DNA of 64,000 bases from an archaeon (GTDB lineage: Archaea > Nanobdellota > Nanobdellia > Pacearchaeales > GW2011-AR1): positions 2,855-66,854 of the forward strand of contig JABHWZ010000009.1 of the NCBI GenBank assembly GCA_018657525.1, given 5' to 3'. Shown in pieces: positions 3,103-61,874 of the stretch (position 1 is the first letter of the stretch; every line of letters begins with the position of its first letter). The position numbers and the translations under genes are program-made. The notes beneath the pieces were generated by a model. It saw only the letters and a list, made by a program, of their open reading frames with translations. It was not told where the DNA came from and ran no database searches.

Positions 3103-4347
3103 ATGAAAGGAATATTAGTTATTTTGGATGGATTGGGAGATTTGCCTAATAATCAGTTGGGGGGTAAGACTCCGTTAGAGGCGGCTAAGACTCCCAATAT
3201 GGATTTTTTGGCTACTCGTGGAGAGTTGGGGTTTATGTATCCTGTTAAACCTGGATTTGTGCCGGAATCAGATGAAGCAATTGTTTCTATATTTAATAAT
3301 AATTTAATTTCAAGTACTCGGGGACAGTTGGAAGCGAAAGGGACTGGACTAAATCTTACTCGAGGGGATTTGGCTTTGAGAGTTAATTTCGCTACGATTG
3401 ATTCTTTGGAAAAAGGAAATATTTTGGATAGAAGAGCTGGGAGAAATTTAACAACTGAAGAAGCAGAGATTCTTTGTAAAGCATTGAATAAGATTTCTTT
3501 ACCAGTAAAGTTTGAAATTGTGCCTAGTGTGCAGCATAGAGCAGTGTTAGTTTTTCGAGGAGGATTTTCAGATAATCTTGTGGGTAACGATTTAACTTAT
3601 GTTAATGGTAAAACAAAGGGGTTTAATAAAATTCATTCTTGTGAGGTTTTAGACGAGGAGGACAATTCTCAGTATACTGTAAATATATTAAATGAATTTT
3701 TAGATAAAGCGTACGATATTTTGAAAGACCATCCAGTTAATTTGGAGAGGAAGAAGAAAGGGTTTTTGCCCTCCAACTATCTTTTAGTAAGGGGCGCAGG
3801 AATTGAAATCCCTAAATTAAAACAATACAAAAAGTGGGCATCTGTTGCTTATATGCCTCTAGAAATTGGATTTTCCAAATTATCTGGAATGAATGCTTAC
3901 GAGTTTGATTATCCCAAACTAAAAAGTTTTGATGCTTACGAAAATTTATATAACGCTTTAAAAAAAGCTTGTAAATTTTCTGTTAAGATAATTAAGAAAA
4001 TTATGAAAACTTCAGAGTATCTTTATATTCATATAAAAGAAACAGATTTGCCTGGACATGATAATAAGCCTTTAGAGAAAAAGGAGATGTTGGAATATAT
4101 TGATAAAACCTTGTTTAAGTATATACGGAAAGTGGCGCCTCCAAATGAGATTAAGGTTGTTGTGACAGGGGATCATTCAACTCCGTGTAAGCTTAAGGAT
4201 CATTCTTCTGATCCTGTTCCGGTTTTATTTTATAATAATAAAGAGGTGCCAGAAGAAAAACACTTTAATGAAAAAGAGTGTAGAAAAGGGAGAGTGGGAA
4301 GAATTCTTGGTAAGGATTTGTTGAAAAGAGTTGGTTTTTCCAAATGA
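3103..4347 (+). CDS. apgM: cofactor-independent phosphoglycerate mutase, archaeal type
   Basis: N-terminus MKGILVILDGLGD, TGDHSTP motif, length typical of ApgM; ggaggt RBS upstream. Confidence 0.85.
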   Translation: MKGILVILDGLGDLPNNQLGGKTPLEAAKTPNMDFLATRGELGFMYPVKPGFVPESDEAIVSIFNNNLISSTRGQLEAKGTGLNLTRGDLALRVNFATIDSLEKGNILDRRAGRNLTTEEAEILCKALNKISLPVKFEIVPSVQHRAVLVFRGGFSDNLVGNDLTYVNGKTKGFNKIHSCEVLDEEDNSQYTVNILNEFLDKAYDILKDHPVNLERKKKGFLPSNYLLVRGAGIEIPKLKQYKKWASVAYMPLEIGFSKLSGMNAYEFDYPKLKSFDAYENLYNALKKACKFSVKIIKKIMKTSEYLYIHIKETDLPGHDNKPLEKKEMLEYIDKTLFKYIRKVAPPNEIKVVVTGDHSTPCKLKDHSSDPVPVLFYNNKEVPEEKHFNEKECRKGRVGRILGKDLLKRVGFSK

Positions 4348-6697: not shown

Positions 6698-6750
6698 GAT
6701 TTGATTTGGAGAAGGTAATTGAGAGTGGGAAATTTGTAATAAGGGATTCA

Positions 6751-6840
6751 GTCGCTTCGCTCTCTACTCCGTAGAACATCAATTTCTGTAGAAATTGACA
6801 TAAACCCCCTACAACTTCTGTAGAAGTAAAAGTTGCTTGG
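6751..6840. repeat. family D-long mini-element (three short palindromes)
   Basis: gtcgcttcgctctctactccgtagaacatcaatttctgtagaaattgacataaacc... matches 25271-25360; its left end abuts a 9-nt copy of the tRNA-Thr T-loop (agggattca, 6742-6750). Confidence 0.8.
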
Positions 6841-6876
6841 CCAATAGGCATACCCCAAATTGCGGAATATTGGGGC
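6839..6876. repeat. family F element, copy 1, in inverted orientation to 7276-7311
   Basis: ggccaataggcataccccaaattgcggaatattggggc is about 85 percent identical to the reverse complement of 7276-7311. Confidence 0.8.
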
Positions 6877-6936
6877 AAATTTACGTGACTTAGAATCCTG
6901 AAGAATTAATATATATTATCTTGCTTCGATAATTGA

Positions 6937-6976
6937 CACTGCTCAGTGTACCTCTTTTTGCGGAGTGCTTGGGCAA
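6937..6976. repeat. family E 40-nt mini-element, copy 1
   Basis: cactgctcagtgtacctctttttgcggagtgcttgggcaa; related copies at 35599-35638 and 58082-58118. Confidence 0.8.
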
Positions 6977-6993
6977 AGCCTGCAGAGGGATTC
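6977..6993 (-). pseudogene. partial copy of the tRNA-Thr 3' end (positions 57-73)
   Basis: agcctgcagagggattc versus agcctgcggagggattc at 7150-7166 (16/17). Confidence 0.8.
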
Positions 6994-7149
6994 CTTTATC
7001 TCCTAATCACGATTTGCACTTTTAAAAATACCTTCGGTAATTTATTAAATCGTAATTACTCGACCCCCAATTGAAAGTTGCTTTGAGTTTACGTGACTTG
7101 GAATCCTGCCAGGATTAATAATATTTAACAAAGTTAAATATTATAGATA

Positions 7150-7221
7150 AGCCTGCGGAGGGATTCAAACCCCCGACCTATTCCTTACAAGGGAATTGCT
7201 CTATCACTGAGCTACGCAGGC
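7150..7221 (-). tRNA. tRNA-Thr (anticodon TGT)
   Basis: The reverse complement folds as a cloverleaf: GCCTGCG acceptor, anticodon loop CTTGTAA, T-arm GGGGG-TTTGAAT-CCCTC, discriminator T. Confidence 0.9.
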
Positions 7222-7275
7222 ATATATAATTATTTTAGAAACAGGTATTTAAAGATTTATTCTTTGGTGTCTTAC

Positions 7276-7311
7276 GCCCAGTATTTCGCAATTTGGGTGA
7301 TGCCTATTGGC
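7276..7311. repeat. family F element, copy 2; overlaps the stop codon of rps3ae
   Basis: gcccagtatttcgcaatttgggtgatgcctattggc; see 6839-6876. Confidence 0.8.
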
Positions 7312-7966
7312 GACCTGCTTCTTCCTTAATTTCTTGAGCAGGTTTTTCTTTTTGAGTTTTTGTTACTTCTTTTTTAACAGGTTTTTTTTCCTTAACCTTT
7401 GTAGGTTCTATTTCTTTTGTCGGTGCATTTTCCAATTCTTTTTCTACTTTTATCCTTCTAATTTCACAAGACGAAAGAGGATATATTTTTTTAAGAACCA
7501 AACTTAATTTTTTTTGCAAGTTGTTTTTTAATATTTCTTCAAATACTTCATTTGCTGTTTTTGTTTTAATTTCATTAATTAATTCTTCTTTAGCTTTATT
7601 TCTCAATGCTTTTCTTACTGCTCTTGATACTTTTCTTCTTGTTACTAAAAATGGTTTTATTTTAATCTGAAAGTCTTTCGATTCTGTTGAAAATGAATCT
7701 TCAACATAATTTGTTCCTTTTCTTACTAATCTTTTCATGAAGTAAGGAAGGATTGTTAGTTTTTTTGGAACTGCAGTTGCAGTGTTATCTTGTACTTCTA
7801 TTTTCGCTTGGAGGATTATACTTTTTCCCCTTTGAAGTCTTGTTAAATCATACTTGATATGCTTACCTTTAAGTTCCTCTATTTCGAATGCCTGTAAATC
7901 AGTTTCTTTACTGATGATTGGTATTTCTACCTTAAAAAATTTCTTTTTACGTTTTGCTTGTGCCAT
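7304..7966 (-). CDS. rps3ae: 30S ribosomal protein S3Ae (eS1) with Lys/Glu-rich C-terminal extension
   Basis: KKKFFKVEIPIIS...LVTRRKVSRAVRKALRNKAKEEL...IYPLSSCEIRRIKV is the typical eS1 pattern. Confidence 0.85.
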   Translation of the reverse strand: MAQAKRKKKFFKVEIPIISKETDLQAFEIEELKGKHIKYDLTRLQRGKSIILQAKIEVQDNTATAVPKKLTILPYFMKRLVRKGTNYVEDSFSTESKDFQIKIKPFLVTRRKVSRAVRKALRNKAKEELINEIKTKTANEVFEEILKNNLQKKLSLVLKKIYPLSSCEIRRIKVEKELENAPTKEIEPTKVKEKKPVKKEVTKTQKEKPAQEIKEEAGRQ

Positions 7967-8262: not shown

Positions 8263-8577
8263 TTATTCTTGTTGTTGTTTCCCGGCTCTTTGGCCTTTCT
8301 TTTGATATTTAGATTTTTTACATGCTGAACAAGTATACATTATGTTTGTTTTTTTAGTTGTTTTAGTTTTACGTTTGTGTTTTGCTTGGGCTGGTTTTGA
8401 ACCCCACTTCCCTAAGTTTCCGATTCCTCTAGCCAATCCTCTTAATCTTGCTCTAATTCTTCCTCCGCCCCGCGTCATTGTTCCTCTTGCGAAACCTGTT
8501 CCAACTAGTTTGATTTTTTGGTCTGTTCTTTTTCTACAATAAGGACAAAACCTTTTTGTTGTTTTTGGAATTTTCAT
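8263..8577 (-). CDS. rpl44e: 50S ribosomal protein L44e (eL42)
   Basis: Zinc ribbon CPYCRK...CSACKK, basic composition, KHKRKTKTTKK segment. Confidence 0.8.
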   Translation of the reverse strand: MKIPKTTKRFCPYCRKRTDQKIKLVGTGFARGTMTRGGGRIRARLRGLARGIGNLGKWGSKPAQAKHKRKTKTTKKTNIMYTCSACKKSKYQKKGQRAGKQQQE

Positions 8578-8637
8578 ATTAATTTATCTTAATCTGAGTT
8601 TAAAAAGGTTTTTATATTGGTGGTCCCGTAGTTATTT

Positions 8638-8760
8638 GGGTTTCTTTTTTCAAAAAAAGAAAAGCTACAGTGTAAAAGAAAACTAAAATTGAAATCTTGA
8701 ATAAGATTTGTGAGTTAGAATCGTTTTCTCTTGCAATCCGAAGAACGATTCCTGTAGGGG
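8638..8760. repeat. family C structured intergenic element, copy 1
   Basis: Shares the hairpin series with 45339-45558 and 61571-61874; the central hairpin loop is inverted (gaat versus attc) and the last stem differs by compensatory changes. Confidence 0.8.
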
Positions 8761-17707: not shown

Positions 17708-17971
17708 ATGGATTATAAAACAGAAGAATGGTCTGACTATGAGGCAGATTGGTGGGGATTTGAAAAAGAATCATCTTTGTCAGTTGGAAAACAATCCTCT
17801 CAAGAACCTTTTGCTAACCCAAAAGATTCTGCTGACAAATATTTGGTTATTTTAGAAACAGCACTAGGTATTTCTCTAGAGAATAGACAAATTATACAAA
17901 TGATAATGGACAATCCCAAGATGAGTTTTGATATGAAAAATGTTAAGATTCATAGAAGGATTTTTGGGTAA
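17708..17971 (+). CDS. hypothetical protein
   Basis: aggagg RBS, ATG start, followed by a hairpin terminator. Confidence 0.45.
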   Translation: MDYKTEEWSDYEADWWGFEKESSLSVGKQSSQEPFANPKDSADKYLVILETALGISLENRQIIQMIMDNPKMSFDMKNVKIHRRIFG

Positions 17972-17991
17972 GGTTTATAATTTTAAATTAT

Positions 17992-18019
17992 GGGGCGAAA
18001 GCCCCTTTTTCTTTTTTTT
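17992..18019 (+). terminator. hairpin GGGGC-GAAA-GCCCC followed by a T-run
   Basis: Read directly at 17992-18005, with a T-rich tract to 18019. Confidence 0.6.
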
Positions 18020-18067
18020 AAAAGTTTTTTAAGCTGAGTTATACTACTTTTTTCATGCGGGTATGCC
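18020..18067 (+). repeat. copy 1 of the tRNA-Leu promoter plus tRNA positions 1-11
   Basis: aaaagttttttaagctgagttatactacttttttcatgcgggtatgcc is identical at 18020, 18244 and 18395. Confidence 0.9.
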
Positions 18068-18243
18068 TCCGAGCTTGCAATCTCAATTTGTAATATTTAG
18101 ATACTTTTTTGGTTGTTCTATTTTAGAATTCAAAATCCTCCTTCCATCCCCCTCCCTCCCGCCCGGAGGAAAAGTAATTATTGAATTCTAAAATTATTAA
18201 TTGGTTTAAATAAAGTCAAACTTGTTCTCCCACCCCTCAATTC

Positions 18244-18291
18244 AAAAGTTTTTTAAGCTGAGTTATACTACTTTTTTCATGCGGGTATGCC
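18244..18291 (+). repeat. copy 2 of the tRNA-Leu promoter plus tRNA positions 1-11
   Basis: Same 48-mer as 18020-18067 and 18395-18442. Confidence 0.9.
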
Positions 18292-18365
18292 TCCGAGCTC
18301 CCAACCCTGATTTTTTCCCATTACCCCTTTTTTATTTGAATAAACCCAAAATCAAAGTTGCTCGG
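18292..18365 (+). repeat. family B module, tRNA-Leu locus
   Basis: tccgagctcccaaccctgattttttcccattaccccttttttatttgaataaacccaaaatcaaagttgctcgg is about 88 percent identical to 22626-22697. Confidence 0.85.
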
Positions 18366-18394
18366 GTCAAACTTGTTCTCCCACCCCTCAATTC

Positions 18395-18431
18395 AAAAGT
18401 TTTTTAAGCTGAGTTATACTACTTTTTTCAT
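18395..18431 (+). promoter_or_regulatory. tRNA-Leu promoter (BRE/TATA-like aaaagttttttaagc about 27-37 nt upstream of the tRNA 5' end)
   Basis: A/T box at the canonical archaeal distance; a similar aaaagtt box lies upstream of tRNA-Cys. Confidence 0.5.
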
Positions 18432-18514
18432 GCGGGTATGCCGGAGTGGTCAAACGGGTCAGGTTTAGGACCTGATAGCTTATGCTTACTTAGGTTCGAA
18501 TCCTAATACCCGCA
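18432..18514 (+). tRNA. tRNA-Leu (anticodon TAG), long variable arm
   Basis: GCGGGTA acceptor, anticodon loop TTTAGGA, 15-nt variable arm, T-arm TTAGG-TTCGAAT-CCTAA. Confidence 0.9.
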
Positions 18515-18595
18515 TTTATTGAGATTCGAAGCCTCGGGTTTCGTTGAAGAATTGTGAAGCAATTGCTTTGGCGAGCGAGGATTTACATCCGACGC
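18515..18595 (+). repeat. family A module, tRNA-Leu locus (variant central segment)
   Basis: gattcgaagcctcgggtttcgtt...gagcgaggatttacatccgacgc shared with 21403-21604 (reverse strand) and 22832-22904. Confidence 0.85.
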
Positions 18596-18613
18596 CGAAT
18601 CCTAATATCCGCA
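18596..18613 (+). pseudogene. copy of tRNA-Leu positions 56-73
   Basis: cgaatcctaatatccgca versus cgaatcctaatacccgca at 18497-18514 (17/18); both are followed by tttatt. Confidence 0.9.
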
Positions 18614-18625
18614 TTTATTTTTTAT

Positions 18626-19573
18626 TTAATTATTTGTAGAATTATTTAGCTTTTTTTCTTTGGCTTCTTTTTCTTTTTGTTTGATTTTGTCTTCAAGTTC
18701 TAATCTTTCAATTAATTCCTTGTATCTATTTCTAATTGTTACTTCAGTTATTCCTGCTACATCTGCAACTTCTCTTTGAGTTTTCTTTTCATCATTTATT
18801 AAAGCAGCGACGTAAAGCGCAGCGGCAGCTATTCCGGCCGGGCCTCTTCCTGAAGTTAATTCAACTCTTTCAGCGTCTCTTAAAATTTTTAATGCTTCGT
18901 TTTGAGTTTTTGGTGAGAGCTTTAGTACTGAAGAGAATCTGGAAACATAATCCTTTGGAGATGATTGTTTTACTTTTATTCCAAGTTTTCTTATTACAAA
19001 TCTGTATGTTCTTCCGATTTCTTTTCTTTCTACATCTGAGGCAGTTGCCATTTCGTCGAGGGTTCTTGGAATATTATAGGAACGACAGGCGGCGTATAAG
19101 CAAGCAGCAATTACAGATTCCATACTTCTTCCTCTTACTAGTCCTCTTTGAAGAACATAGTTATAGATTCTTGATGCTTCGTCTCGGATTACATTTGGTA
19201 AATTTAGGTATGATGCTATAACTCTTAATTCGGCCATGGCTAATCTTAAGTTTCTTTCAATCGAAGTTGAAACTCTTTCTTGCCATTTTTTTAATCTTAA
19301 GAATTTTCTTGTTTGTCCTGGATCAAGTTTATAGATGTCAGAAATCTCCCCAATATTTGTCGTTAATCCCTTGTCAAATTTTTGCATAGAGATTGGCGCT
19401 CCTCCACGACCTTTTTTACCTGATTTATCAAATTGGCCTTGGGGGTCTATTCCAGTATCAACCATTTTATCTTCAACAACTAGCCCACAATCATTACAAA
19501 TGACTTCTCCTAAATGAGGATCATAATTTAAATGAATACTCCCACATTCAGGACATTTTTTTATATTTGGCAT
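18626..19573 (-). CDS. tfb: transcription initiation factor IIB (TFB)
   Basis: N-terminal zinc ribbon CPECGS...CNDCG followed by two cyclin-like repeats. Confidence 0.9.
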   Translation of the reverse strand: MPNIKKCPECGSIHLNYDPHLGEVICNDCGLVVEDKMVDTGIDPQGQFDKSGKKGRGGAPISMQKFDKGLTTNIGEISDIYKLDPGQTRKFLRLKKWQERVSTSIERNLRLAMAELRVIASYLNLPNVIRDEASRIYNYVLQRGLVRGRSMESVIAACLYAACRSYNIPRTLDEMATASDVERKEIGRTYRFVIRKLGIKVKQSSPKDYVSRFSSVLKLSPKTQNEALKILRDAERVELTSGRGPAGIAAAALYVAALINDEKKTQREVADVAGITEVTIRNRYKELIERLELEDKIKQKEKEAKEKKLNNSTNN

Positions 19574-19674
19574 TTTAGAAATTACTTTTGTTACTCTAGA
19601 GGTTTATAGTAAGATTTATAAAGCTTTTCTATTTATAAACTTTTCTATTTAAAAATTTATTTCAAAATGAGAAT

Positions 19675-20034
19675 TTATTCAATTAGAATTCCGTTAATAA
19701 CACCTTCTTGACTTGGCCTATTTGTGATTTTTGCTTTTCCAAGTGTGGTTTCTACAATTGTGCCTTTTGTTAAAATATTTTGTCTTGCTAGAAAACGATT
19801 TGAAGGAGTCTCGAGAACATTTTTAATTTCTGTCTTTTGAATTTTTTTATCTTTTAAAATATTTATTTTATTGTTCTTTAATGAGTATGTTTTTTTATTT
19901 CCGCCCATTGTTCTCAAGGTTCTTCTTTTTTCTTCTCCTAGTTTTACAATTCTTTTTTGCCCTGCTGTCTCGAAGGATTTTTTCTTTCTATTCTTGATAT
20001 ATTTTCCGCCAGTGATTTTTTTTCCTTTGTTCAT
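19675..20034 (-). CDS. rps8e: 30S ribosomal protein S8e
   Basis: KITGGKY...RKKKSFE.G...T.LGEEKRRTLRTMGGNKK...; start at ATG 20034 is preferred, the track start 20079 is possible. Confidence 0.8.
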   Translation of the reverse strand: MNKGKKITGGKYIKNRKKKSFETAGQKRIVKLGEEKRRTLRTMGGNKKTYSLKNNKINILKDKKIQKTEIKNVLETPSNRFLARQNILTKGTIVETTLGKAKITNRPSQEGVINGILIE

Positions 20035-20137
20035 GATATAATGGGCTATTTTTGATTTAAAAATGTTTTGACGCGTCATTTTGTGTAATAGTTGTTGCTA
20101 AATAGTAATGCGATAGGTTTAAAAGTCAATTCAGCCG

Positions 20138-20392
20138 TTGATAATTATGGTTAACGGAATCGAACGTCCTTTGGATTTGTTGAATAATTCAAAGAGCCAA
20201 GAAGTTATGGTGCAGTTGAAAAGCGGAAATAAGTTTGTTGGAACTCTTCTAGCTTTTGATATACACATTAATTTGGTTCTAGAGAATACAAAGGAAATGG
20301 ATGGAAGTGACATAAAACGAAACCTTGGTTTGACCTTTTTAAGGGGAGATACAATTATATTTATTTCTCCAGCGTCGACATCTTTGAAATAA
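20138..20392 (+). CDS. Sm-like (LSm) archaeal protein
   Basis: RPLDLLNNSKSQEVMVQLKSGNKFVGTLLAFDIHINLVLENT...LFLRGDTIIFISP (Sm1 and Sm2 motifs); the start could be 20147. Confidence 0.8.
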   Translation: MIIMVNGIERPLDLLNNSKSQEVMVQLKSGNKFVGTLLAFDIHINLVLENTKEMDGSDIKRNLGLTFLRGDTIIFISPASTSLK

Positions 20393-20475
20393 GTAAGCGT
20401 TTTTGTTTTAGTTTCGCAAGTTGTAAAATTTTGAATAGTGGTAACTCTTAAAAACTTAGGTTTATTCTGATAGTT

Positions 20476-21381
20476 ATGGCTACTAAAATTAAAATTACTT
20501 TTTTGGGAACTGCGGATGCAATTCCTAGCGTGAGAAGAAATCATTCAGCTGTATTTTTGAGTTATGATGCAGAGAATATTCTTTTTGATTGTGGGGAGGG
20601 GACACAGAGACAGTTTAGAAAGGCTAGATTAAACCCTGGGAAAGTAACACGTATTTTAATTACTCATTTACATGGGGATCATGTTTTGGGTTTACCTGGT
20701 TTAATGCAAACTTTGAGTTTGTCCAATTATAATAAAACACTTTATATTTATGGGCCAAAAGGTACAAAACAATTTGTTAGAGAAATGTTAAATACTTTTA
20801 AATTTCAAGAAAATTATCCAATTAAAGTGGAAGAAGTTTCTGGGAACTTTTTTGAAAACAAGCATTTTTATTTGGAAGCGGAAAAGATGATTCATGGAAT
20901 TCCTTGTAATGCATATAATTTTGTAAAAAAAGGAAAACTTAGAATTGATAAAAAAAAGTTGAAAAAATCTGGTTTGCCCGAAGGACCTTTGCTGTCTAAG
21001 ATTATTCAGGGGAAAGATGTTGTTTATCAAGGGAAGAAATTTAAATCAAAAGCTTTGACTTATCAAGATAAGGATTTGAAAGTGAGTTTTGTGATGGATA
21101 CTTTAGATAATAAAAGAATTGTGCCTTTTGTTAAAGGGGCAGATGTTTTTGTTTCAGAATCTACATTTAGCTTGGAGGAAAAAGATAAAGCCGAAAAGCA
21201 TAAACATTTGACGTCGGAACAAGCAGCTAAAATTGCAAAAAAAGCAAAAGTAGGGAAATTAATATTAACTCACATTAGTGCTCGTTATGATAAAAATCCT
21301 AAGAAAATTTTACTAGAAGCAAAAAAGATTTTTAGAAAGTCTGAAGTAGTTAAGGATTTAGATGTTTTGGAAGTGGAATAA
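20476..21381 (+). CDS. rnz: ribonuclease Z
   Basis: ITFLGT...FDCGEGTQRQ...ITHLHGDHVLGLPGL, metallo-beta-lactamase tRNA 3' endonuclease pattern. Confidence 0.85.
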   Translation: MATKIKITFLGTADAIPSVRRNHSAVFLSYDAENILFDCGEGTQRQFRKARLNPGKVTRILITHLHGDHVLGLPGLMQTLSLSNYNKTLYIYGPKGTKQFVREMLNTFKFQENYPIKVEEVSGNFFENKHFYLEAEKMIHGIPCNAYNFVKKGKLRIDKKKLKKSGLPEGPLLSKIIQGKDVVYQGKKFKSKALTYQDKDLKVSFVMDTLDNKRIVPFVKGADVFVSESTFSLEEKDKAEKHKHLTSEQAAKIAKKAKVGKLILTHISARYDKNPKKILLEAKKIFRKSEVVKDLDVLEVE

Positions 21382-21384
21382 ATA

Positions 21385-21495
21385 TGGCCCGGACAGGATT
21401 CGGCGTCGGATGTAAATCCTCGTTCGTCCGCTATTGAATTTCTGAAGCGAACGAAACCCAAGGCTTCGAATTCAAAAATAATTTCTTAAAAATTA
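21385..21495 (-). repeat. tandem unit 1: tRNA-Arg positions 56-73, family A module, and a copy of the tRNA trailer
   Basis: tggcccggacaggattcg (18/18 with 21605-21622) followed by gcgtcggatgtaaatcctcg...; starts 3 nt after the rnz stop. Confidence 0.9.
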
Positions 21496-21604
21496 TGGCC
21501 CGGACAGGATTCGGCGTCGGATGTAAATCCTCGCTCGTCCGCTATTGAAATTCTGAAGCGAACGAAACCCAAGGCTTCGAATCCAAATAATTTCTTAAAA
21601 ATTA
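21496..21604 (-). repeat. tandem unit 2: tRNA-Arg positions 56-73, family A module, and a copy of the tRNA trailer
   Basis: About 95 percent identical to unit 1; periods of 111 and 109 nt. Confidence 0.9.
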
Positions 21605-21679
21605 TGGCCCGGACAGGATTCGAACCTGCGACTTTCAGCTTAGAAGGCTGACACTCTATCCAGGCTGAGTTACCGAGCC
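21605..21679 (-). tRNA. tRNA-Arg (anticodon TCT)
   Basis: Reverse complement GGCTCGG acceptor, anticodon loop CTTCTAA, T-arm GCAGG-TTCGAAT-CCTGT. Confidence 0.9.
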
Positions 21680-21733
21680 ATAATAATATTTAAGATAAAA
21701 ACATATTTAAAAGTGTTTGTTTTTAAAGTTAAA

Positions 21734-22576
21734 ATGAAAAAGAGTGTGAAAACACTGAGTTTTCCGGTTAGAGGAAAATACGTTGTAATGCTAGCACCAA
21801 GTTTTGTGGTGGATTTTTCTTACCCTGAAATTATTTTAAAATTAAGACGTCTTGGTTTTGATAAAGTTGTCGAATTAACTTTTGGAGCAAAATTAGTTAA
21901 TAGAGAATATCATAAATTGCTAAAAAAATGTCCCTCAGGATGTTTGATGATTTCTTCTGTTTGTCCTGGAGTGGTGAGTTTAATTAATAATAAATTTTCA
22001 AAGTTAAAAAAGAATTTAATTTTGATAGATAGTCCAATGGTGGCTATGGCGAAAGTGTGCAAGAAAATTTATCCTAAACATAATGTTGTTTTTATTTCTC
22101 CTTGTGAATTTAAAAAACAAGAGGCTGAGGGTTGTAAGGAAATTGATTTTGTGATTAATTTTAATGAATTAAAAGAAATTTTTGCAAAGAAACTTTTTAA
22201 GAGAGAAGATAAAAATTTGTCTACAAGTTTTGATAGGTTTTATAATGATTATACAAAAATATATCCTCTTGCTGGGGGGTTGAGTAAGACAGCTCATTTG
22301 AAAAATATTTTAACAAATAAAGAAAGTATTTCAATAGATGGAATTAAGAGAGTGGAAACTTTTTTAAAAAAAGGAAATTTTGGGAAGTTGAAATTTTTGG
22401 ATGTGAATTTTTGTGTAGGGGGTTGTGTTGGAGGGCCTTACATTAATTCAAGTGTGCCTTTGGTTGTTAAAAAATTAAAAGTAAGAGGTTATTTGAGAAA
22501 ATCTAAACAAGAAGATATACCTGAAATTAAAAAAGGTTTAGTAAAAAAAGCAAAAGGAATTAGTTTGAAGAAGTAA
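21734..22576 (+). CDS. [FeFe]-hydrogenase large-subunit C-terminal-domain-like protein
   Basis: SSVCPGVV, SPMVAMAK, ISPCEFKKQEA and CVGGCVGGP echo the H-cluster-domain motifs TSCCPGW, SPQQM, MPCTAKK and CPGGC. Function unknown. Confidence 0.55.
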   Translation: MKKSVKTLSFPVRGKYVVMLAPSFVVDFSYPEIILKLRRLGFDKVVELTFGAKLVNREYHKLLKKCPSGCLMISSVCPGVVSLINNKFSKLKKNLILIDSPMVAMAKVCKKIYPKHNVVFISPCEFKKQEAEGCKEIDFVINFNELKEIFAKKLFKREDKNLSTSFDRFYNDYTKIYPLAGGLSKTAHLKNILTNKESISIDGIKRVETFLKKGNFGKLKFLDVNFCVGGCVGGPYINSSVPLVVKKLKVRGYLRKSKQEDIPEIKKGLVKKAKGISLKK

Positions 22577-22615
22577 AGAAATAGTTTTAAATAGTGTTTT
22601 CTTAAGTAATTATGT

Positions 22616-22697
22616 GCGCGGATGGTCTGGCTCCCAACTTTGATTTTTTCTCATTACCCCTTTTTTATTTAAATAAACCTAAAATCAAATTTGCTCG
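22616..22697 (+). repeat. copy of tRNA-Cys positions 1-10 (22616-22625) followed by a family B module (22626-22697)
   Basis: gcgcggatgg equals 22759-22768; tctggctcccaactttgattttttctcattaccccttttttatttaaataaacctaaaatcaaatttgctcg matches 18292-18365. Confidence 0.85.
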
Positions 22698-22758
22698 ACG
22701 GCTACATTGTAGCCTTGTACCATCAACTTTAAAAGTTCTGAATTTCTATTTATTTCAT

Positions 22759-22831
22759 GCGCGGATGGCACAGCGGCTACTGCGTCTCCCTGCAGAGGAG
22801 ATTTTCACGGGTTCGAGTCCCGTTCCGCGCT
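22759..22831 (+). tRNA. tRNA-Cys (anticodon GCA)
   Basis: GCGCGGA acceptor, anticodon loop CTGCAGA, T-arm ACGGG-TTCGAGT-CCCGT. Confidence 0.85.
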
Positions 22832-22904
22832 TTAGACGAGAATCCTTGGGTTTCGTTCGCTTCAAAAATTCAATAGCGGACGAGCGAGGATTTACATCCG
22901 ATGC
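22832..22904 (+). repeat. family A module, tRNA-Cys locus
   Basis: ccttgggtttcgttcgcttcaaaaattcaatagcggacgagcgaggatttacatccgatgc is nearly identical to the tRNA-Arg(TCT) units. Confidence 0.9.
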
Positions 22905-22922
22905 CGAGTCCCGTTCCGCGCT
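22905..22922 (+). pseudogene. copy of tRNA-Cys positions 56-73
   Basis: cgagtcccgttccgcgct is identical (18/18) to 22814-22831. Confidence 0.9.
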
Positions 22923-22962
22923 TTTCCCTAAAATTTAAAAACGTGTAGTGTATAATATTTTT

Positions 22963-24747
22963 ATGTATATTGTTAAACAACCTGTGAAGGGGAAGGATTA
23001 TTTTTATCTTCGGAAAAGCGTTAGAGAAAATGGAAAAGTTGTTAGTAAGTCTGTTGCGTATCTTGGAAAAACAAAAACTGATGCAGAGAAAAGATTTAAA
23101 GAGCTAAAAAATCATGGAAAATTGGAGGATTTTGAAAATAAAATTTTAGGGAAAAATGATATGAAAAAATTGGAAACTGAAAAGAATATGGATCAAGAAA
23201 AAATGAAAAAAACTGAAAGTGAATCTATAAAAAATAAAGAAATTAAAGTTTCTACAGATGAGAAAGAATTTTTGAGTTTTCTCAATGAGTCTGGTTTGGT
23301 TTGGGGTCCGAGTCCTGAGATTTATGGTGGGCTTGCAGGATTTTATACTTATGGTCCGTTGGGAAAGTTGTTAAAAAATAAAGTGGAAGATTCAATAAGA
23401 AAAATTTTTAATTCAAATGGTTTAAGGGAATTAGAGTCTCCAACTATTTTGCCAGATTCAGTATGGAAAGCTTCAGGGCATTTAGAAACTTTTAAAGATA
23501 GAACAATAAATTGTTCAAAGTGTAAGGCAGTTTTTAGAGCAGATAAATTAATTGAAGAAAAATATGATGTTCCGGCAGATTCTTTTTCAAATGAGAAGAT
23601 TCTAAATTTTATTGACGAGAAAGGAATTAAATGTCCGAGTTGTAAGGGATTGATGGAAAAATCAATTGATACTCAAAGTTTGATGATGAAGACAAAAGTG
23701 GCTGGGAAGGATGCTTCTTTAAGGCCTGAGACTGCTACAGGAACTTATTTACCATTCACTAGATTTTATAATTATTTTAGGAAAAAACTTCCGTTGGGGG
23801 TTTTTCAAATTGGTAAAGCATATAGAAATGAAATTTCTCCTCGGCAACATGTTTTAAGGGGGAGGGAGTTTACGCAAGCTGAAGGACAAATGTTTGTTGA
23901 TCCTGAAACAAAAAATAATTGGGAGAAATATGAATTAATAAAAGGGGAAAAGTTGCCGTTTTGGAATTCTGAAAGTCAAGAGTCAGATAAATCTGTGGTA
24001 AAGATTACCGTGGCAGAGGCTTTGAAAAAAGGAGATATAAAAAGTCAAGCATATGGTTGGTGTATTTGGTTAGCTTATACTCAGTTTATTAATTTAGGTA
24101 TTCCTTCAGATAGAATTCGTCTGCGACAACATCATCCGGATGAAAAAGCATTTTATGCCGACGACGCTTGGGATATAGAAGTTAAATTAAATAATTATGG
24201 TTGGTTTGAAATGTGCGGAGTTCATGACAGAACAGATTATGATTTAACTCAGCATTCCAAATTTTCGGGGGTTAAATTGGAAGCGGCAAGAGAGAATGGG
24301 GAGAAGTTTGTACCGCATGTTTTAGAAATTGCCTTTGGTACTGATCGTCCGACTTATGCGTTGATTGATATTTTTTACGATAAGAAGGAAGAAGGAGAAG
24401 GGAAGTCAATGTTTAAAATTCCTTATTGGATTGCTCCAATTGATTGTGCTATTTTTCCTTTGGTTAAGAAACCTGAATTATTTAAAATTGCAGAAGACAT
24501 TAAGGAAAGTTTAGAAAGAGAATTTGTCGTCGAGTATGACCTTGCAGGGAGTATTGGTAAAAGGTATTTAAGAAGTGCAGTGGCAGGTATCCCTTATGCA
24601 ATTACTGTTGATTTTGATTCTATTGAAAATGGTGATGTAACTTTGAGAGATCGTGATACTGAAAAGCAAGTTCGTGTTAAGATTTCTGAATTGAAAAATA
24701 TTTTGAGAAAATTAATAAATCAAGAACTCAGCTTCGACAAATTATAA
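22963..24747 (+). CDS. glyS: glycyl-tRNA synthetase (archaeal/eukaryotic type) with ~115-aa N-terminal extension
   Basis: SPEIYGGLAGFYTYGPLG, class II motifs, RPETATG, FRNEISPR. ATG 22963 lies about 27 nt after the aaatttaaaa box, suggesting a leaderless mRNA. Confidence 0.85.
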   Translation: MYIVKQPVKGKDYFYLRKSVRENGKVVSKSVAYLGKTKTDAEKRFKELKNHGKLEDFENKILGKNDMKKLETEKNMDQEKMKKTESESIKNKEIKVSTDEKEFLSFLNESGLVWGPSPEIYGGLAGFYTYGPLGKLLKNKVEDSIRKIFNSNGLRELESPTILPDSVWKASGHLETFKDRTINCSKCKAVFRADKLIEEKYDVPADSFSNEKILNFIDEKGIKCPSCKGLMEKSIDTQSLMMKTKVAGKDASLRPETATGTYLPFTRFYNYFRKKLPLGVFQIGKAYRNEISPRQHVLRGREFTQAEGQMFVDPETKNNWEKYELIKGEKLPFWNSESQESDKSVVKITVAEALKKGDIKSQAYGWCIWLAYTQFINLGIPSDRIRLRQHHPDEKAFYADDAWDIEVKLNNYGWFEMCGVHDRTDYDLTQHSKFSGVKLEAARENGEKFVPHVLEIAFGTDRPTYALIDIFYDKKEEGEGKSMFKIPYWIAPIDCAIFPLVKKPELFKIAEDIKESLEREFVVEYDLAGSIGKRYLRSAVAGIPYAITVDFDSIENGDVTLRDRDTEKQVRVKISELKNILRKLINQELSFDKL

Positions 24748-24852
24748 AATTAATAATTAGTTTTTTAATTGAAAATTTATTTTTTATTGTTACTAAGAAA
24801 AGTTTTTAAAGTTCTTTTACTTGATTTGAGTAATTAAATTGAGGTGATATAA

Positions 24853-25050
24853 ATGCCAAAAGCTATCAAAACTGTTAAAGCAGCAAACAATGAAATCAAA
24901 AGGTTGAAGAAAGCTATGAAGAAAGTGGAAGTGCGTAAGAAGAAGTTAAGTGTTAAACCTAAGAAAGTAGTTAAGAAAAAGGCTGTGAAGAGGAAATCCA
25001 AGAAACCAGCCAAGAAGAAAAAAGCAGCTAAGAAAAAGAAAAGACGTTAA
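24853..25050 (+). CDS. small lysine-rich basic protein (possible chromatin or nucleic-acid binder)
   Basis: gaggtga RBS; roughly half of the 65 residues are Lys/Arg. Confidence 0.55.
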   Translation: MPKAIKTVKAANNEIKRLKKAMKKVEVRKKKLSVKPKKVVKKKAVKRKSKKPAKKKKAAKKKKRR

Positions 25051-25194
25051 GTCTATTTTTTTATTTTTTTTTATTGATTAGTTAAAACCCGAGGACAAAA
25101 AGTTCAATGAAGGGAAGTGATGTAAATATTTTTAAATTGTAATTGATTGTGTTTTTTATTGAAAGTGATTGTATTTTTTGTAGGGGAGAAATTA

Positions 25195-25212
25195 TGGCTC
25201 TGGTGAGAGTTT
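25195..25212 (-). pseudogene. copy of tRNA-Met positions 56-73
   Basis: tggctctggtgagagttt is identical (18/18) to 25413-25430. Confidence 0.9.
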
Positions 25213-25412
25213 GTCGCTTCGCTCTCTACTCCGTAGAATGAGAGTTTCTATTTAAATTTGGAAATCTCATGATCACTTCGTTCTCTACTTCGTAGAACAT
25301 CAATTTCTGTAGAAATTGACATAAACCACCGACGTTCTGTGGAACAAAAAGTTATCTGAATTTTGGGAGCCTAAATTCTCAAAAATTTAAATGGCATTGA
25401 AAATGCCATAAA
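25213..25412. repeat. 200-nt mosaic insert: D-short (25213-25238), atgaga...tctcat hairpin module (25239-25270), D-long (25271-25360), hairpin atggcattgaaaatgccat
   Basis: Matches 6751-6840 (family D) and the atgaga...ttggaaaatctcat module at 46483-46576. Confidence 0.8.
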
Positions 25413-25485
25413 TGGCTCTGGTGAGAGTTTAACTCACGACCTCTGCCTCATGAGAGCAGCGCTCTAAACACTGAGCTACAGAGCC
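25413..25485 (-). tRNA. tRNA with CAT anticodon (elongator Met or Ile2) with atypical D and T loops
   Basis: Reverse complement GGCTCTG acceptor, anticodon loop CTCATGA, D-loop AGTGTTTA, T-loop TTAAACT. Confidence 0.75.
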
Positions 25486-25544
25486 AAACTTAAAAGAATA
25501 ATTTCATTTAAAAGGTTTTTTAAAGTTTAATTCTATCCAGGAAT

Positions 25545-25808
25545 ATGGTTTTAGGTGATGTAGCAAGCAATTTAACTCAAATTAATCAATCTACGGATTT
25601 TTTTACGGATCTAATTGTGGAAGTGGGTAAAATTGGTCTTTGGTTGCAAACTTTGGGAATTTTTGTTATTCTCTGGTTAGTCTTCCAAATTATTAATTTT
25701 TTATTGAATAGAAAAAGAACTAATTTAACTGATAGTTTTAAAGTAGAGATAAAACAAATAAATACTAAACTTAATCGGATTGAAAAATTGATAAAAAAGA
25801 AAATTTAA
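25545..25808 (+). CDS. small membrane protein
   Basis: One clear TM (IGLWLQTLGIFVILWLVFQIINFLL) and a coiled C-terminus. Confidence 0.5.
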   Translation: MVLGDVASNLTQINQSTDFFTDLIVEVGKIGLWLQTLGIFVILWLVFQIINFLLNRKRTNLTDSFKVEIKQINTKLNRIEKLIKKKI

Positions 25809-28990: not shown

Positions 28991-29512
28991 TTATGTCTTA
29001 ATCCAATCGACTTCATAGTAACTTACTTTTCCTTCGTGATCTACTATTGCAATGAGAAGTTTCTTTTTTGTGGAATGTGCAACTCTATTTTTTGCAGTGA
29101 ATTCGTGCCAAGTTAATTTTCCTGTTTCTGAATCCACAAAGACAATCCATTTGGCGTGAGATTGTCCTGGTTTTTTTCCTTTACCATAAACTCTAAAATC
29201 TGCTCCAAATTTTAATGCGGTTTTTACAATGTGCCCTTTTTCTCGTAGATCTTCAAAGACTTCGTATTTTAGATTAAATCTTTTATCTATTTTTTGCAAT
29301 TTTTTTTGCAATTCTTGTTCACTTAGTTGTTTGTTTTGTTGTAAAACTTCCAGTTTATTTTGATTGACTAAGAAGAGAGTTTCAACTAGGGAATATTGGA
29401 TTTTGTCTCTTACTCTTTCTCCAAATCTCGATTTGTCGTGCAATTGATATGCCAATGAATCGTTGGTTGATATAATGTGCCCTACAATGTGTGCTTGAAT
29501 TTTGTTTGTCAT
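28991..29512 (-). CDS. endA: tRNA-splicing endonuclease
   Basis: KGHIVKTALKFGADFRVYGKG....SHAKWIVFV matches the catalytic C-terminal domain pattern. Confidence 0.8.
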   Translation of the reverse strand: MTNKIQAHIVGHIISTNDSLAYQLHDKSRFGERVRDKIQYSLVETLFLVNQNKLEVLQQNKQLSEQELQKKLQKIDKRFNLKYEVFEDLREKGHIVKTALKFGADFRVYGKGKKPGQSHAKWIVFVDSETGKLTWHEFTAKNRVAHSTKKKLLIAIVDHEGKVSYYEVDWIKT

Positions 29513-35586: not shown

Positions 35587-35598
35587 TTTTGTTTTTAA

Positions 35599-35638
35599 CA
35601 CTGCTTAGTGTGCCCTTCTTTGTGGTTTGCTTGGGCAA
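35599..35638. repeat. family E 40-nt mini-element, copy 3, flanked by TTTTAA direct repeats
   Basis: cactgcttagtgtgcccttctttgtggtttgcttgggcaa; ttttaa at 35593-35598 and 35639-35644. Confidence 0.8.
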
Positions 35639-45338: not shown

Positions 45339-45558
45339 GGGGTTCTTTTTTCAAAAAAAGTAGCGAACGAGTCGCTTCGAGTTCTCCTCCTTCGTCGGAA
45401 AAAAGAACCTACAGTGGTAGAAAATGGGTTTTTCTTTTAGAAAAAGAATAACCACAGTGTAAAAGAAGACTAAAATTGAAATCTTATTCAAGATTTGTGA
45501 GTTAGAATTTTCTTCTTTTTGCCTCCTACAGAAAATTCCCATGAGGGTTTTTCTTTTC
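45339..45558. repeat. family C structured element, copy 2, with duplicated head hairpin and a 39-nt GC-rich nested insertion (45360-45398)
   Basis: ggggttcttttttcaaaaaaa[gtagcgaacgagtcgcttcgagttctcctccttcgtcgg]aaaaaagaacctacagtggtag...aaatcttattcaagattt...gaattttc...gaaaattc. Confidence 0.8.
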
Positions 45559-46377: not shown

Positions 46378-46449
46378 GGGCCTATATTTCAATGGATAGA
46401 ATAACAGGTTTCGGCCCTGTTGATCGAGGTTCGAATCCTCGTAGGCTCA
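46378..46449 (+). tRNA. tRNA-Arg (anticodon TCG)
   Basis: GGGCCTA acceptor, anticodon loop TTTCGGC, T-arm CGAGG-TTCGAAT-CCTCG. Confidence 0.8.
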
Positions 46450-46451
46450 TT

Positions 46452-46600
46452 GAGGATCTGAACCTCGTCCTCACTTTGTTGCGGATGAGACTCTTCCGCT
46501 GAATTGGAAAATCTCATAGTCACTTTGTTCTCAACAAGTTGGATGAGACTCTTCCGCTGAATTGGAAAATCTCATAGAGGATCGAAGCTTTGTAGGCTCA
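46452..46600 (+). repeat. downstream mosaic: degenerate T-arm/3'-end copy (46452-46473), 36-nt perfect tandem repeat (46483-46518, 46541-46576), second 3'-end copy (46577-46600, 20/24)
   Basis: gaggatctgaacctcgtcctca and gaggatcgaagctttgtaggctca versus the real gaggttcgaatcctcgtaggctca; ggatgagactcttccgctgaattggaaaatctcata occurs twice. Confidence 0.8.
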
Positions 46601-57942: not shown

Positions 57943-58239
57943 ATGAGTGAATTTTTATGGCATAAGGTTTCTGAAAAAGAGAAAGAAGAAATTTCTAAAA
58001 AAGCAAAGTTAATAATGGATAATTTTTCTAAAAAGTTAGATTTTGTAAAAGAGAGTATGTCTGAGAATTTTATTGAGGGGGCACTGCTCAGTGTACCTTT
58101 AGTTGCGGAATGCCATGGTAAAATTTTTGAGAGGGAGGAAGGTAATTGTGAAGGGTTGGATATAAATAGAAAAGTTATGTTTGAGAATGCTCCTCAAAAA
58201 AATGATTCTTTTATAATTGCGGAGAAAAAGAAATGGTAG
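57943..58239 (+). CDS. gatC: GatC-like amidotransferase subunit C carrying an 18-aa in-frame insertion
   Basis: C-terminus REEG....R..MFENAPQKNDSFII resembles GatC (REDE...NAP...G.F.VP); gatA lies two genes downstream. Confidence 0.5.
   Translation: MSEFLWHKVSEKEKEEISKKAKLIMDNFSKKLDFVKESMSENFIEGALLSVPLVAECHGKIFEREEGNCEGLDINRKVMFENAPQKNDSFIIAEKKKW
58082..58118. repeat. family E mini-element, copy 2, inside the gatC-like CDS
   Basis: cactgctcagtgtacctttagttgcggaatgccatgg; the first 17 nt are identical to 6937-6953. Confidence 0.8.
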
Positions 58240-61570: not shown

Positions 61571-61685
61571 GGGGTTCTTTTTTCAAAAAAAGAACCTACA
61601 GTGGTAGAAAAAAATATGTTGACAAATCTTATTCAAGATTTGTGAGTGAGAATTTTCTTCTTTTTGCCTCCTAAGGAAAATTCCC
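61571..61685. repeat. family C structured element, copy 3
   Basis: ggggttcttttttcaaaaaaagaacctacagtggtag...aaatcttattcaagattt...gaattttc...gaaaattccc. Confidence 0.85.
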
Positions 61686-61874
61686 GGCCCTCCCCCTCTT
61701 TTTTCAAAAAGAAAATCTACAGGGGTAGAAAAAAATATGTTGACAAATCTTATTCAAGATTTGTGAGTGAGAATTTTCTTCTCTGCTCAAGCTCACACTC
61801 GCTTTTTGTGACGTTCGCTTTGCTCACAAATTTTTGCGAGGGTAAACTTTCGGCCTCCCATGGAAAATTCCCCC
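61686..61874. repeat. family C structured element, copy 4, tandem to copy 3, with a 71-nt nested insertion (61783-61853)
   Basis: Same hairpin series; the last stem is interrupted by ctgctcaagctcacactcgc...gggtaaactttcgg. Confidence 0.8.

Follow-up and report, generated by a model that had tools for sequence, protein, structure and literature searches.

The tandem array downstream of tRNA-Arg(TCT) exemplifies a genome-wide process by which the tRNA genes of a Pacearchaeote have been scarred, as seen at the six tRNA genes of the window (the whole stretch of 64,000 nucleotides that was analysed). All six (6/6) carry partial copies of their own ends, set off by small structured inserts. As to the mechanism, we hold with moderate confidence that the array is a DNA-level insertion scar rather than a gene array: a non-autonomous element targeted to the T-loop would have inserted with a local duplication, and the resulting unit would then have been doubled. 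This mechanism is a proposal drawn from sequence comparison. An earlier note on this DNA had read the array as a matter of repeated integration, or of unequal crossover, at this one tRNA. The unit structure that it described stands, but the array is not peculiar to tRNA-Arg, given that all window tRNA genes are scarred and that scars are found on the 5' side too.

Anatomy of the array and the empty site in a relative

The repeat search (TRF) reported an array at 21383-21622, with a period of 111, 2.2 copies, 96% matches and a score of 441. The 18-mer CGAATCCTGTCCGGGCCA, which corresponds to tRNA positions 56-73, has three exact occurrences on the minus strand (at 21385, 21496 and 21605) and none in 100 dinucleotide shuffles, even when 3 mismatches were allowed. 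Together with base-identical assemblies from two samples, these searches establish that the array is real. The earlier note had stated that both displaced 18-mers match the real 3' end (21605-21622) exactly. This is correct, and the exact repeat in fact extends to 20 nt (positions 56-73 plus TA), found at 21383-21402, 21494-21513 and 21603-21622. The intact tRNA-Arg(TCT) itself lies on the minus strand, with ends at 21604/5 and 21679/80 (ARAGORN and Rfam RF00005, 67.4 bits).

The two units had been described as nearly identical, and indeed 21496-21604 and 21385-21495 differ by only 3 substitutions and one 2-nt indel; the repeated 20-nt cores and their flanks give 55 nt of exact identity between units. 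It was also accurate to define the repeating unit as the 3' end plus its trailer plus a 'family A' segment (A hereafter), and this family is real: it has 4 copies in the window, each directly downstream of a tRNA gene. The Arg inserts are 92 nt long and contain no ORF. A T5 run immediately follows each tRNA 3' end at this locus, and in the distal unit a G-to-A change disrupts the would-be closing stem.

Comparison of the same locus in related genomes, which the earlier note had asked for, revealed an empty site. In the relative L010, whose RNase Z is 64% identical, tRNA-Arg(TCT) is encoded on the same strand (minus), 5 nt from the rnz stop codon, and has no insert. The outermost 18-mer of the window is therefore the original tRNA-Arg 3' end, and about 220 nt of inserted DNA now separate it from the remainder of the gene. 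The stop codon of rnz, TAA, lies at 21379-21381. Counted from this codon, the outermost 18-mer begins 3 nt downstream and the 20-mer 1 nt downstream, so that the array start previously placed 3 nt past the stop is correct for the 18-mer. The functional link between rnz and the array that this placement implied finds no support: in all the relatives examined, tRNA-Arg(TCT) is next to rnz, whichever strand encodes it and whether or not inserts are present. The adjacency is thus inherited gene order, and the outermost 18-mer abuts rnz because it is the original 3' end of the gene. The strand of tRNA-Arg(TCT) is flipped between some relatives. Canonical introns are present in the tRNA-Arg of relatives.

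The source of the DNA is a DPANN archaeon without close sequenced relatives. The relatives of its RNase Z are named Pacearchaeota or Nanoarchaeia, with at most 71% identity, and the window encodes TFB, ribosomal protein S8e, an Sm-like protein, RNase Z, GlyRS, ribosomal protein S17e and a tRNA-splicing endonuclease. A search for recombinases, based on Pfam for 20 ORFs and on precomputed annotations, returned no integrase, transposase, reverse transcriptase, TnpB, Cas1/casposase or polB in the 64 kb and about 14 kb of extensions; all checked ORFs are housekeeping genes.

Scars at the other tRNA genes and their insert families

The scar survey covered the six tRNA loci of the 64-kb window (Table 1). 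A is also found at tRNA-Leu and tRNA-Cys, where a duplicate of positions 56-73 of the respective tRNA comes after it. Since each copy of A precedes the positions 56-73 of its own tRNA, the duplicate was probably made locally, and not carried by the element. The same is suggested by the general pattern of families at several tRNAs: A occurs at Arg, Leu and Cys, D at Thr and Met, and E at Thr in the window and at Arg and Leu in the relative L090.

Table 1. Positions in the window of rnz, of the array at tRNA-Arg(TCT) and of the scars at the other tRNA genes
Feature	Position	Strand	Details
rnz (RNase Z)	20476..21381	+	convergent with tRNA-Arg; neighbour, outside the element
tRNA-Arg(TCT), intact	21605..21679	-	positions 56-73 at 21605-21622; ARAGORN, Rfam RF00005
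Proximal 109-nt unit	21496..21604	-	AT-rich trailer 21585-21604; A 21514-21584; copy of positions 56-73 at 21496-21513
Distal 111-nt unit	21385..21495	-	trailer 21474-21495; A 21403-21473; copy of positions 56-73 at 21385-21402
tRNA-Leu(TAG) 3' scar	18432..18613	+	tRNA 18432-18514; 8-nt trailer; A 18523-18595 (variant hairpin 2); copy of positions 56-73 at 18596-18613 (17/18)
tRNA-Leu 5' scar	18020..18431	+	promoter and positions 1-11 three times (1-11 at 18057, 18281, 18432)
tRNA-Cys 3' scar	22759..22922	+	tRNA 22759-22831; A about 22837-22904; copy of positions 56-73 at 22905-22922 (20-nt exact repeat)
tRNA-Cys 5' scar	22616..22758	+	positions 1-10 (22616-22625); B 22626-22698; D-arm remnant CGGCTAC; promoter module
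tRNA-Met scar	25195..25485	-	tRNA 25413-25485; D 25273-25335; partial second D 25213-25258; copy of positions 56-73 at 25195-25212
tRNA-Thr scar	6742..7221	-	tRNA 7150-7221; insert 1 with family E 7011-7064; copy of positions 57-73 at 6977-6993 (16/17)
tRNA-Thr insert 2	within 6742..7221	-	ends in element D 6751-6814, then copy of positions 56-64 at 6742-6750
tRNA-Arg(TCG) scar	46378..46600	+	tRNA 46378-46449; degenerate copy of T-arm and 3' end 46452-46474
tRNA-Arg(TCG) hairpins	46483-46519, 46541-46577	+	two identical, 37 nt; then second degenerate copy of positions 49-73 at 46577-46600

The duplicates are of similar length: 20 nt at Arg and at Cys, 19 nt at Met and at the tRNA-Leu of the relative L012, 18 nt at Thr, and 24 nt (with one mismatch) at Leu, that is, 18 to 20 nt in 5/6 cases. 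They start at position 56 for three unrelated inserts, namely A, D and the L012 insert. The copy at Met is exact. Decay is seen in other distal copies, with one mismatch at Leu and at Thr, heavy degeneration at Arg(TCG) and in L090, and truncation of the second Thr copy. The distal copy at Leu ends 12 nt from the convergent TFB gene.

On the 5' side, the partial copies of tRNA-Leu are separated by a 139-nt insert and by the hairpin element B (18292-18365), the latter being followed by the D-loop remnant GGTCAAAC. The promoter module of tRNA-Cys resembles that of tRNA-Leu. B takes the place of 4 to 5 nt of the D-loop and is not a clean interruption. Because a D-arm remnant stands after the insert, the 5' scars are not simple target duplications.

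Scars are sporadic among the relatives. In L092, tRNA-Leu has no insert and stands 24 nt from TFB, compared to 12 nt for the distal copy in the window, which by the same reasoning as at tRNA-Arg would be the original 3' end. In L012, tRNA-Leu is followed by a 47-nt insert of three hairpins and then by an exact copy of positions 56-73, while downstream of its tRNA-Met lies a 3' fragment from a different tRNA-Met allele than that of the intact gene. L090 has scars on both sides of tRNA-Arg, tRNA-Leu and tRNA-Met, and a homologous 5' scar is found at the tRNA-Arg of L004 and L092. A hairpin whose loop is conserved and whose stems covary makes up family E, which is common to the tRNA-Thr trailer of the window and to the tRNA-Arg and tRNA-Leu trailers of L090; the junctions of this family lie at 56|57, 59|60 and 62|63. 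When 60 tRNAs were probed strictly for 3' duplicates (the 3' 14-mer, at most one mismatch, within 700 nt downstream), the matches were the tRNAs of this organism and the tRNA-Leu of L012. A reciprocal control on the same 60 tRNAs, with the 3' probe upstream and the 5' probe downstream, gave 0 matches.

A is about 70 nt long, and its four window copies (4/4: two at Arg(TCT), one at Leu(TAG), one at Cys) all lie within 100 nt downstream of tRNA genes. The Arg and Cys copies are 92 to 95% identical; in the Leu copy the flanks are conserved and hairpin 2 is replaced. The element folds as three hairpins. Hairpin 1 (GAAGCC-UUG-GGUUUC) overlaps a T-loop-like motif, hairpin 2 of the Leu copy has a different sequence and is still paired, with 3 pairs changed on both sides, and hairpin 3 (GGAU-UUAC-AUCC) is invariant. 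The folding energy is unexceptional (z-scores -0.7 to -2.0). A repeat search reported no inverted repeats within the units, and the ends of A (GCCTyGG and GCGTCGG) match at only 5 to 6 of 7 nt, which makes no convincing terminal inverted repeat. The left end of A differs between loci. Its left motif, GGATTCGAAsCCTTGGGTTT, also stands by itself, with no other part of A, 3' of the tRNA-Arg of L011 and L012, so that A may derive in part from an ancient native trailer of tRNA-Arg.

Exact-pattern scans for A gave no match in the GTDB representative genomes and the JGI metagenomes, collections in which the source organism is absent, and neither A nor D was matched in IMG/VR. With nhmmer profiles of A, B, D and E, only the left fragment of A in L011 and three copies of family E were detected over all compared loci. 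Rfam 15 returned only the six tRNAs at the gathering score, and at E<=10 across 17900-25700 nothing covered A, B or D. The insert families seem to be confined to this lineage. Three other candidate features were set aside: C/D-box motifs in the elements, rejected after a check by eye; TTTTTAAG of the trailer as a promoter for A, which resembles the TATA box of tRNA-Leu but is present at Arg only and not at Leu or Cys, and is considered a coincidence; and a 4-nt duplication (CGAA/CGAG) flanking an 'A core', dropped because the Cys alignment is ambiguous.

Origin of the scars

In the history that we favour, A with a short AT-rich left flank would have inserted in the T-loop of tRNA-Arg(TCT), between positions 55 and 56, with local duplication of about 19 to 20 bp, from position 56 to just beyond the 3' end. 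Such a duplication would leave the intact gene upstream and strand the original 3' end beside rnz. The whole 110-nt unit (core, trailer and A) would have been duplicated once afterwards. The simplest route to the second unit would be slippage, or unequal exchange, involving the 20-nt cores; alternatively, the same unit may have inserted a second time, an outcome that the sequence cannot tell from unequal exchange. More generally, A, B, D, E and the hairpin family would be non-autonomous elements that spread in trans among the tRNA genes of this Pacearchaeote and its relatives, joining always at the universally conserved T-loop on the 3' side or at the D-arm on the 5' side.

The near-constant length of the duplicates and their start at position 56 suggest a staggered cleavage anchored on the T-arm. 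We infer, by analogy, a T-arm-recognising enzyme that makes staggered cuts, whether a casposase/Cas1 or another integrase analogue, as well as the order of the events; as no recombinase is present in the 64 kb and the 14 kb of extensions, this enzyme is hypothetical. The variable junctions of E, and several partial copies that start at position 49, look less precise than the work of one site-specific enzyme would. The D-arm remnants of the 5' scars and the Thr-like T-stem flank of the D copy at tRNA-Met fit such an enzyme poorly as well. The foreign-allele fragment at the tRNA-Met of L012 also argues against local duplication, which cannot produce it.

A wider version of this proposal is offered as tentative, and we would not call it probable. 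Pacearchaeota might harbour undescribed miniature, gene-less hairpin elements. A T-arm-recognising enzyme (casposase/Cas1-like or a new integrase) would insert them in trans into essentially any tRNA gene, at 55|56 in the T-loop and in the D-arm, with a target duplication of about 19 to 20 bp. The tRNA genes would then be saturated with nested scars and yet functional, and the building of the array would parallel the duplication of repeats in CRISPR adaptation.

An ancestry by classical integration seems unlikely to us. A tyrosine integrase would have inserted, once or twice in tandem, an element whose attP carried the tRNA 3' end, and near-total deletion would then have left attL, an arm of about 90 nt (A) and attR. 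A regenerated gene, a displaced 3' fragment that starts in the T-arm and tandem arrays are the textbook signature of such events. Where the functional tRNA ends, the duplicate ends too, as it should if integration has to restore the gene; several fragments begin at position 49; and at tRNA-Met of L012 the flanking fragment of a different allele speaks for an element-borne attP core. However, no insert and no part of the window contains an integrase gene or a remnant of one, the inserts measure only 47 to 200 nt, and IMG/VR holds no match for A or D. Furthermore, A, D and E each occur at several tRNAs with matching local cores, which would call for a separate attP variant for each tRNA and for the same near-total deletion everywhere.

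The scars could also have arisen without any mobile element, by microhomology-mediated template switching between tRNA loci at breaks or stalled forks, tRNA genes being fragile and strongly transcribed. The switches would use the conserved T-loop and D-loop, the filler would come from the flanks of other tRNAs, and selection would retain one intact copy. We regard this as distinctly unlikely. In its favour, the junctions lie in the two sequence blocks common to all tRNAs, the positions of the E junctions vary, and the 5' scars show a complex, nested structure. A Thr-like T-stem flank, GTCGGTGGTTT, accompanies the D copy at tRNA-Met, tRNA-Leu and tRNA-Cys have a common module just upstream of the promoter, and CGAATCCT, identical in Arg and Leu, would provide an 8-nt microhomology for the return. 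The strand flip of tRNA-Arg between relatives is in keeping with such rearrangements, and an enzyme gene is unnecessary. Against this, inserts with no relation to each other (A, D, that of L012 and one of 15 nt at Met) repeatedly join at exactly 55|56, and the duplicate has a near-constant length of 19 to 20 nt. The hairpins of the inserts are conserved, with stems that covary across species, and 6/6 tRNAs are affected here, compared to few in relatives at about 60 to 70% RNase Z identity.

That the trailer modules are functional RNA transcribed together with the tRNA, for example terminator or processing hairpins or a small RNA with a tail like a tRNA 3' end, with copies kept by selection, appears improbable. 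Such a role would account for the substitutions of A, which fall in loops or preserve pairing, and for hairpin 2 of the Leu copy, swapped yet paired. Hairpin 1 and the T-run are kept downstream of tRNA-Arg in L011 and L012, and conservation between species is seen for family E as well as for the 5' leader of tRNA-Arg. Moreover, in L090, L092, L004 and L012 a 5' partial copy is found between the sole visible promoter and the intact tRNA, and must thus be transcribed. At the Arg locus, however, the T5 run after each tRNA 3' end should limit read-through into A. The folding z-scores (-0.7 to -2.0) and the lack of an Rfam match even at E<=10 speak against a structured RNA under selection, as do the decay of the distal copies, with a G-to-A change that breaks a stem in the distal unit, and the absence of the modules at the same sites in close relatives.

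An assembly artefact, in which two strain variants of one unit were wrongly concatenated, is very improbable. It would be favoured by the 55-nt exact stretch that the units have in common, and by the behaviour of two other contigs, L095, which begins at 21590 inside the array, and L094, which is chimeric at this tRNA. At first sight L094 resembled a second allele that had acquired a foreign tRNA 3' end; most likely, two species are joined at the tRNA in this contig (orthologue 58% identical). The two-unit array is, nevertheless, 100% identical in L001 (ENA ERZ23491642, SAMN05224480), L002 (NCBI GCA_018671455.1) and L003 (SAMN05224487), and L003 reads through both Arg units. The differences specific to each unit lie 56 to 60 nt apart across the unit junction, so that single short reads can phase them. 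With an identical array in two samples and in the NCBI MAG, and with phasable variants, an artefact is unlikely; the single-unit form of the same architecture at 5 other tRNAs points the same way. No copy-number variant was seen between assemblies, the accessible contigs being either identical or broken within the repeat. What had looked like differences between assemblies upstream of tRNA-Leu were scaffold gaps of 100 N.

Non-canonical introns are a known trait of DPANN archaea, the relatives have canonical tRNA-Arg introns and the window has a tRNA-splicing endonuclease gene (28991-29512). It is nonetheless barely credible that A and B are relics of BHB introns or split tRNAs, lying in the T-loop and D-arm with the mature tRNA spliced from the distal exon copy: the upstream gene is already complete with a normal tRNA score (ARAGORN, Rfam), B replaces 4 to 5 nt of the D-loop, and a scan of all equivalent junction pairs for a 3-nt bulge, 4-bp helix and 3-nt bulge yielded only the trivial palindromes CCGG and GCGC, at Arg and Cys, and had no match at Leu and Met. 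The 18 nt were also considered as a retroviral-type primer-binding site for a tRNA 3' end, and this was rejected, as the CCA has no place in such a site and no reverse transcriptase was seen.

If insertion at the T-loop is the right explanation, the tRNA genes of a streamlined DPANN archaeon would be preferred landing pads for tiny non-autonomous elements, with the gene regenerated each time. The paradigm of integration at tRNA genes would widen from gene-carrying islands to elements of about 70 nt, and a hypothetical integrase that reads the T-arm would be indicated. If the scars are instead due to recombination, they would be a useful marker of tRNA-gene fragility, with an ordinary mechanism. 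The loci offer natural before and after sites from which the reaction may be reconstructed. The scars also have practical consequences: at tRNAs they cause metagenome assemblies to break or to become chimeric, they give the genes long, structured leaders and trailers which annotation overlooks, and they could pass for split or intron-containing tRNAs.

Comparison with known systems

No description of this tRNA-scarring process was found in the searchable literature, and the closest parallels are partial. Short direct repeats that undergo unequal exchange or slippage account for the second 110-nt unit (2.2 copies, 96%, junctions at the 20-mer), but leave the first unit and the architecture at the other tRNAs unexplained. 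With MITEs and other small non-autonomous prokaryotic repeats, the inserts share their short, non-coding, hairpin-forming and multi-copy character, mobilisation in trans and families common to related genomes. They differ in that A has no clear terminal inverted repeats, in a duplication far longer than usual and in the strict association with the tRNA T-loop and D-arm. A MITE would be recognised by inverted repeats at its termini, by a target duplication that is short and by an autonomous transposon related to it; here the duplication is about 19 to 20 nt, the window contains no transposase, and the public collections no relative.

Casposons offer the nearest enzymatic parallel. For the casposase of A. 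boonei, the target is set by the T-loop region of tRNA-Pro, and the target duplication at the tRNA 3' end is 15 bp (PMC5137440). In Aciduliprofundum boonei, an archaeal enzyme acts on a target defined by a T-loop palindrome, leaves the tRNA intact and makes a direct duplication of fixed length at the 3' end, and gene-less mini-substrates of casposons can integrate in trans. The scars would fit a similar scheme in part; their duplicates are 18 to 24 nt long and mostly start at position 56, and the junctions of family E vary. The casposon duplication of 15 bp overlaps the tRNA by 5 bp, whereas that of the window, of about 19 to 20 bp, lies inside the tRNA (positions 56 to about 75). Casposons also have terminal inverted repeats, PolB and cas1; A shows no clear inverted repeats, and neither gene was seen in the 64 kb and about 14 kb of extensions.

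The scars also resemble the islands and prophages that tyrosine integrases insert in tRNA genes. Such elements displace 3' fragments that often begin at the T-stem, and they may lie in tandem. Of the 3919 islands in Islander, 3' fragments are present in 3760 and the T-stem region is used by 1836, and 125 are in tandem (PMC4383910). In the phage Ms6, the 26-bp attP core starts at position 49, in the T-stem, and extends as far as the tRNA 3' end, strand exchange takes place in the 7-nt T-loop, and integration can be retargeted by editing the core (PMC1762012). The window presents the same intact regenerated gene, with a same-orientation fragment running from the T-arm to the 3' end, as well as tandem arrays and the rarer cases of 5' fragments. 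The intact tRNA and its cognate displaced fragment, a copy of 18 to 20 nt, are found on the same strand of the same replicon; an integrase between the gene and the fragment is not. The inserts are hairpins of 47 to 200 nt without integrase or cargo. One family is found at several tRNAs with local duplicates, which argues against a core borne by the element; the foreign-allele fragment at the tRNA-Met of L012 argues for one. A free form of A or D with its own tRNA segment was found neither in the GTDB genomes and JGI metagenomes (A) nor in IMG/VR (A and D). The scars are best filed as a variant of integration at tRNA genes, one that is miniature and gene-less, has multiple tRNA targets and probably involves a target duplication.

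Repeats at the tRNA-Thr locus and between genes

A 35-nt inverted repeat, 89% complementary, flanks tRNA-Thr together with its promoter and first insert, and its upstream arm overlaps the S3Ae stop codon. This repeat may form a leader-trailer processing stem; alternatively, its arms may be the ends of a composite element. The second insert of the same locus holds one of the three copies in the window of a 44-nt repeat family (containing CACTGCTCAGTG), the remaining two being distant from every detected tRNA. Insert family E, whose core reads GAGTAAyTwyGATTTmAwTwAATTmCCGAAGGTA, is kept in two species, within the trailers of three different tRNAs, and covariation was observed in its stems. An intergenic 86-nt element with the hairpin AAATCTTATTCAAGATTT is present twice in tandem, the two copies being spaced by 121 nt and 95% identical, and two weaker, diverged copies lie elsewhere in the window. 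One public assembly (L009) terminates within this element.

Coordinates of repeats, tRNA genes and associated features
Feature	Locus	Positions	Strand
Inverted repeat arms, tRNA-Thr	window	6840-6874; 7277-7311	
44-nt repeat family	window	6933-6976; 35595-35638; 58078-58121	
Family E	window	7011-7064	-
Family E	L090 (relative)	8537-8595; 4081-4140	
86-nt element, tandem pair	window	61576-61661; 61697-61782	
86-nt element, diverged copies	window	8644-8729; 45431-45516	
Triplicated tRNA-Leu promoter and 5' end	window	18020-18431	
100-N gap	L001 (public assembly)	7662-7761	
100-N gap	L003 (public assembly)	7813-7912	
tRNA-Met	window	25413-25485	
tRNA-Met	L012 (relative)	20073-20144	-
Orphan-fragment region downstream of tRNA-Met	L012	around 19900-20072	
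LAGLIDADG-type gene at tRNA-Leu(TAG)	L005 (relative)	7252-7935	-

Assembly breaks and a fused contig

In place of the triplicated promoter and 5' end of tRNA-Leu, two public assemblies carry 100-N scaffold gaps; short-read assemblies are routinely broken by these repeats. In L094 (positions 1-1750; ENA ERZ4200978 NODE_139), the 5' part of this organism's tRNA-Arg, with the Fe-hydrogenase-like side, is fused to the orthologue of another species. The orthologue on the foreign side has 58% amino-acid identity, the junction lies exactly inside the tRNA 3' end, and a G2-G71 mismatch results. Most likely the contig is a chimera assembled across the conserved tRNA rather than a real allele.

tRNA-Leu and tRNA-Met genes in relatives

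L005 has a free-standing homing endonuclease gene of the LAGLIDADG type that overlaps tRNA-Leu(TAG) at the tRNA's 3' end, and a partial T-loop-like repeat, TTCTAATCCTAGC, is found 120 nt downstream of this tRNA.

The tRNA-Met of the window has an unusual T-loop (TTAAACT), where position 56 is A rather than the near-universal C, and its D-loop is devoid of the GG pair. Both traits are common to several Pacearchaeota, including L004 and L010. About 150 nt downstream of its intact tRNA-Met, L012 carries an orphan copy of positions 49-73 that is of the A56 type, as in the window and L010. This fragment comes from a different tRNA-Met allele, which suggests that an incoming gene took the place of the resident one.
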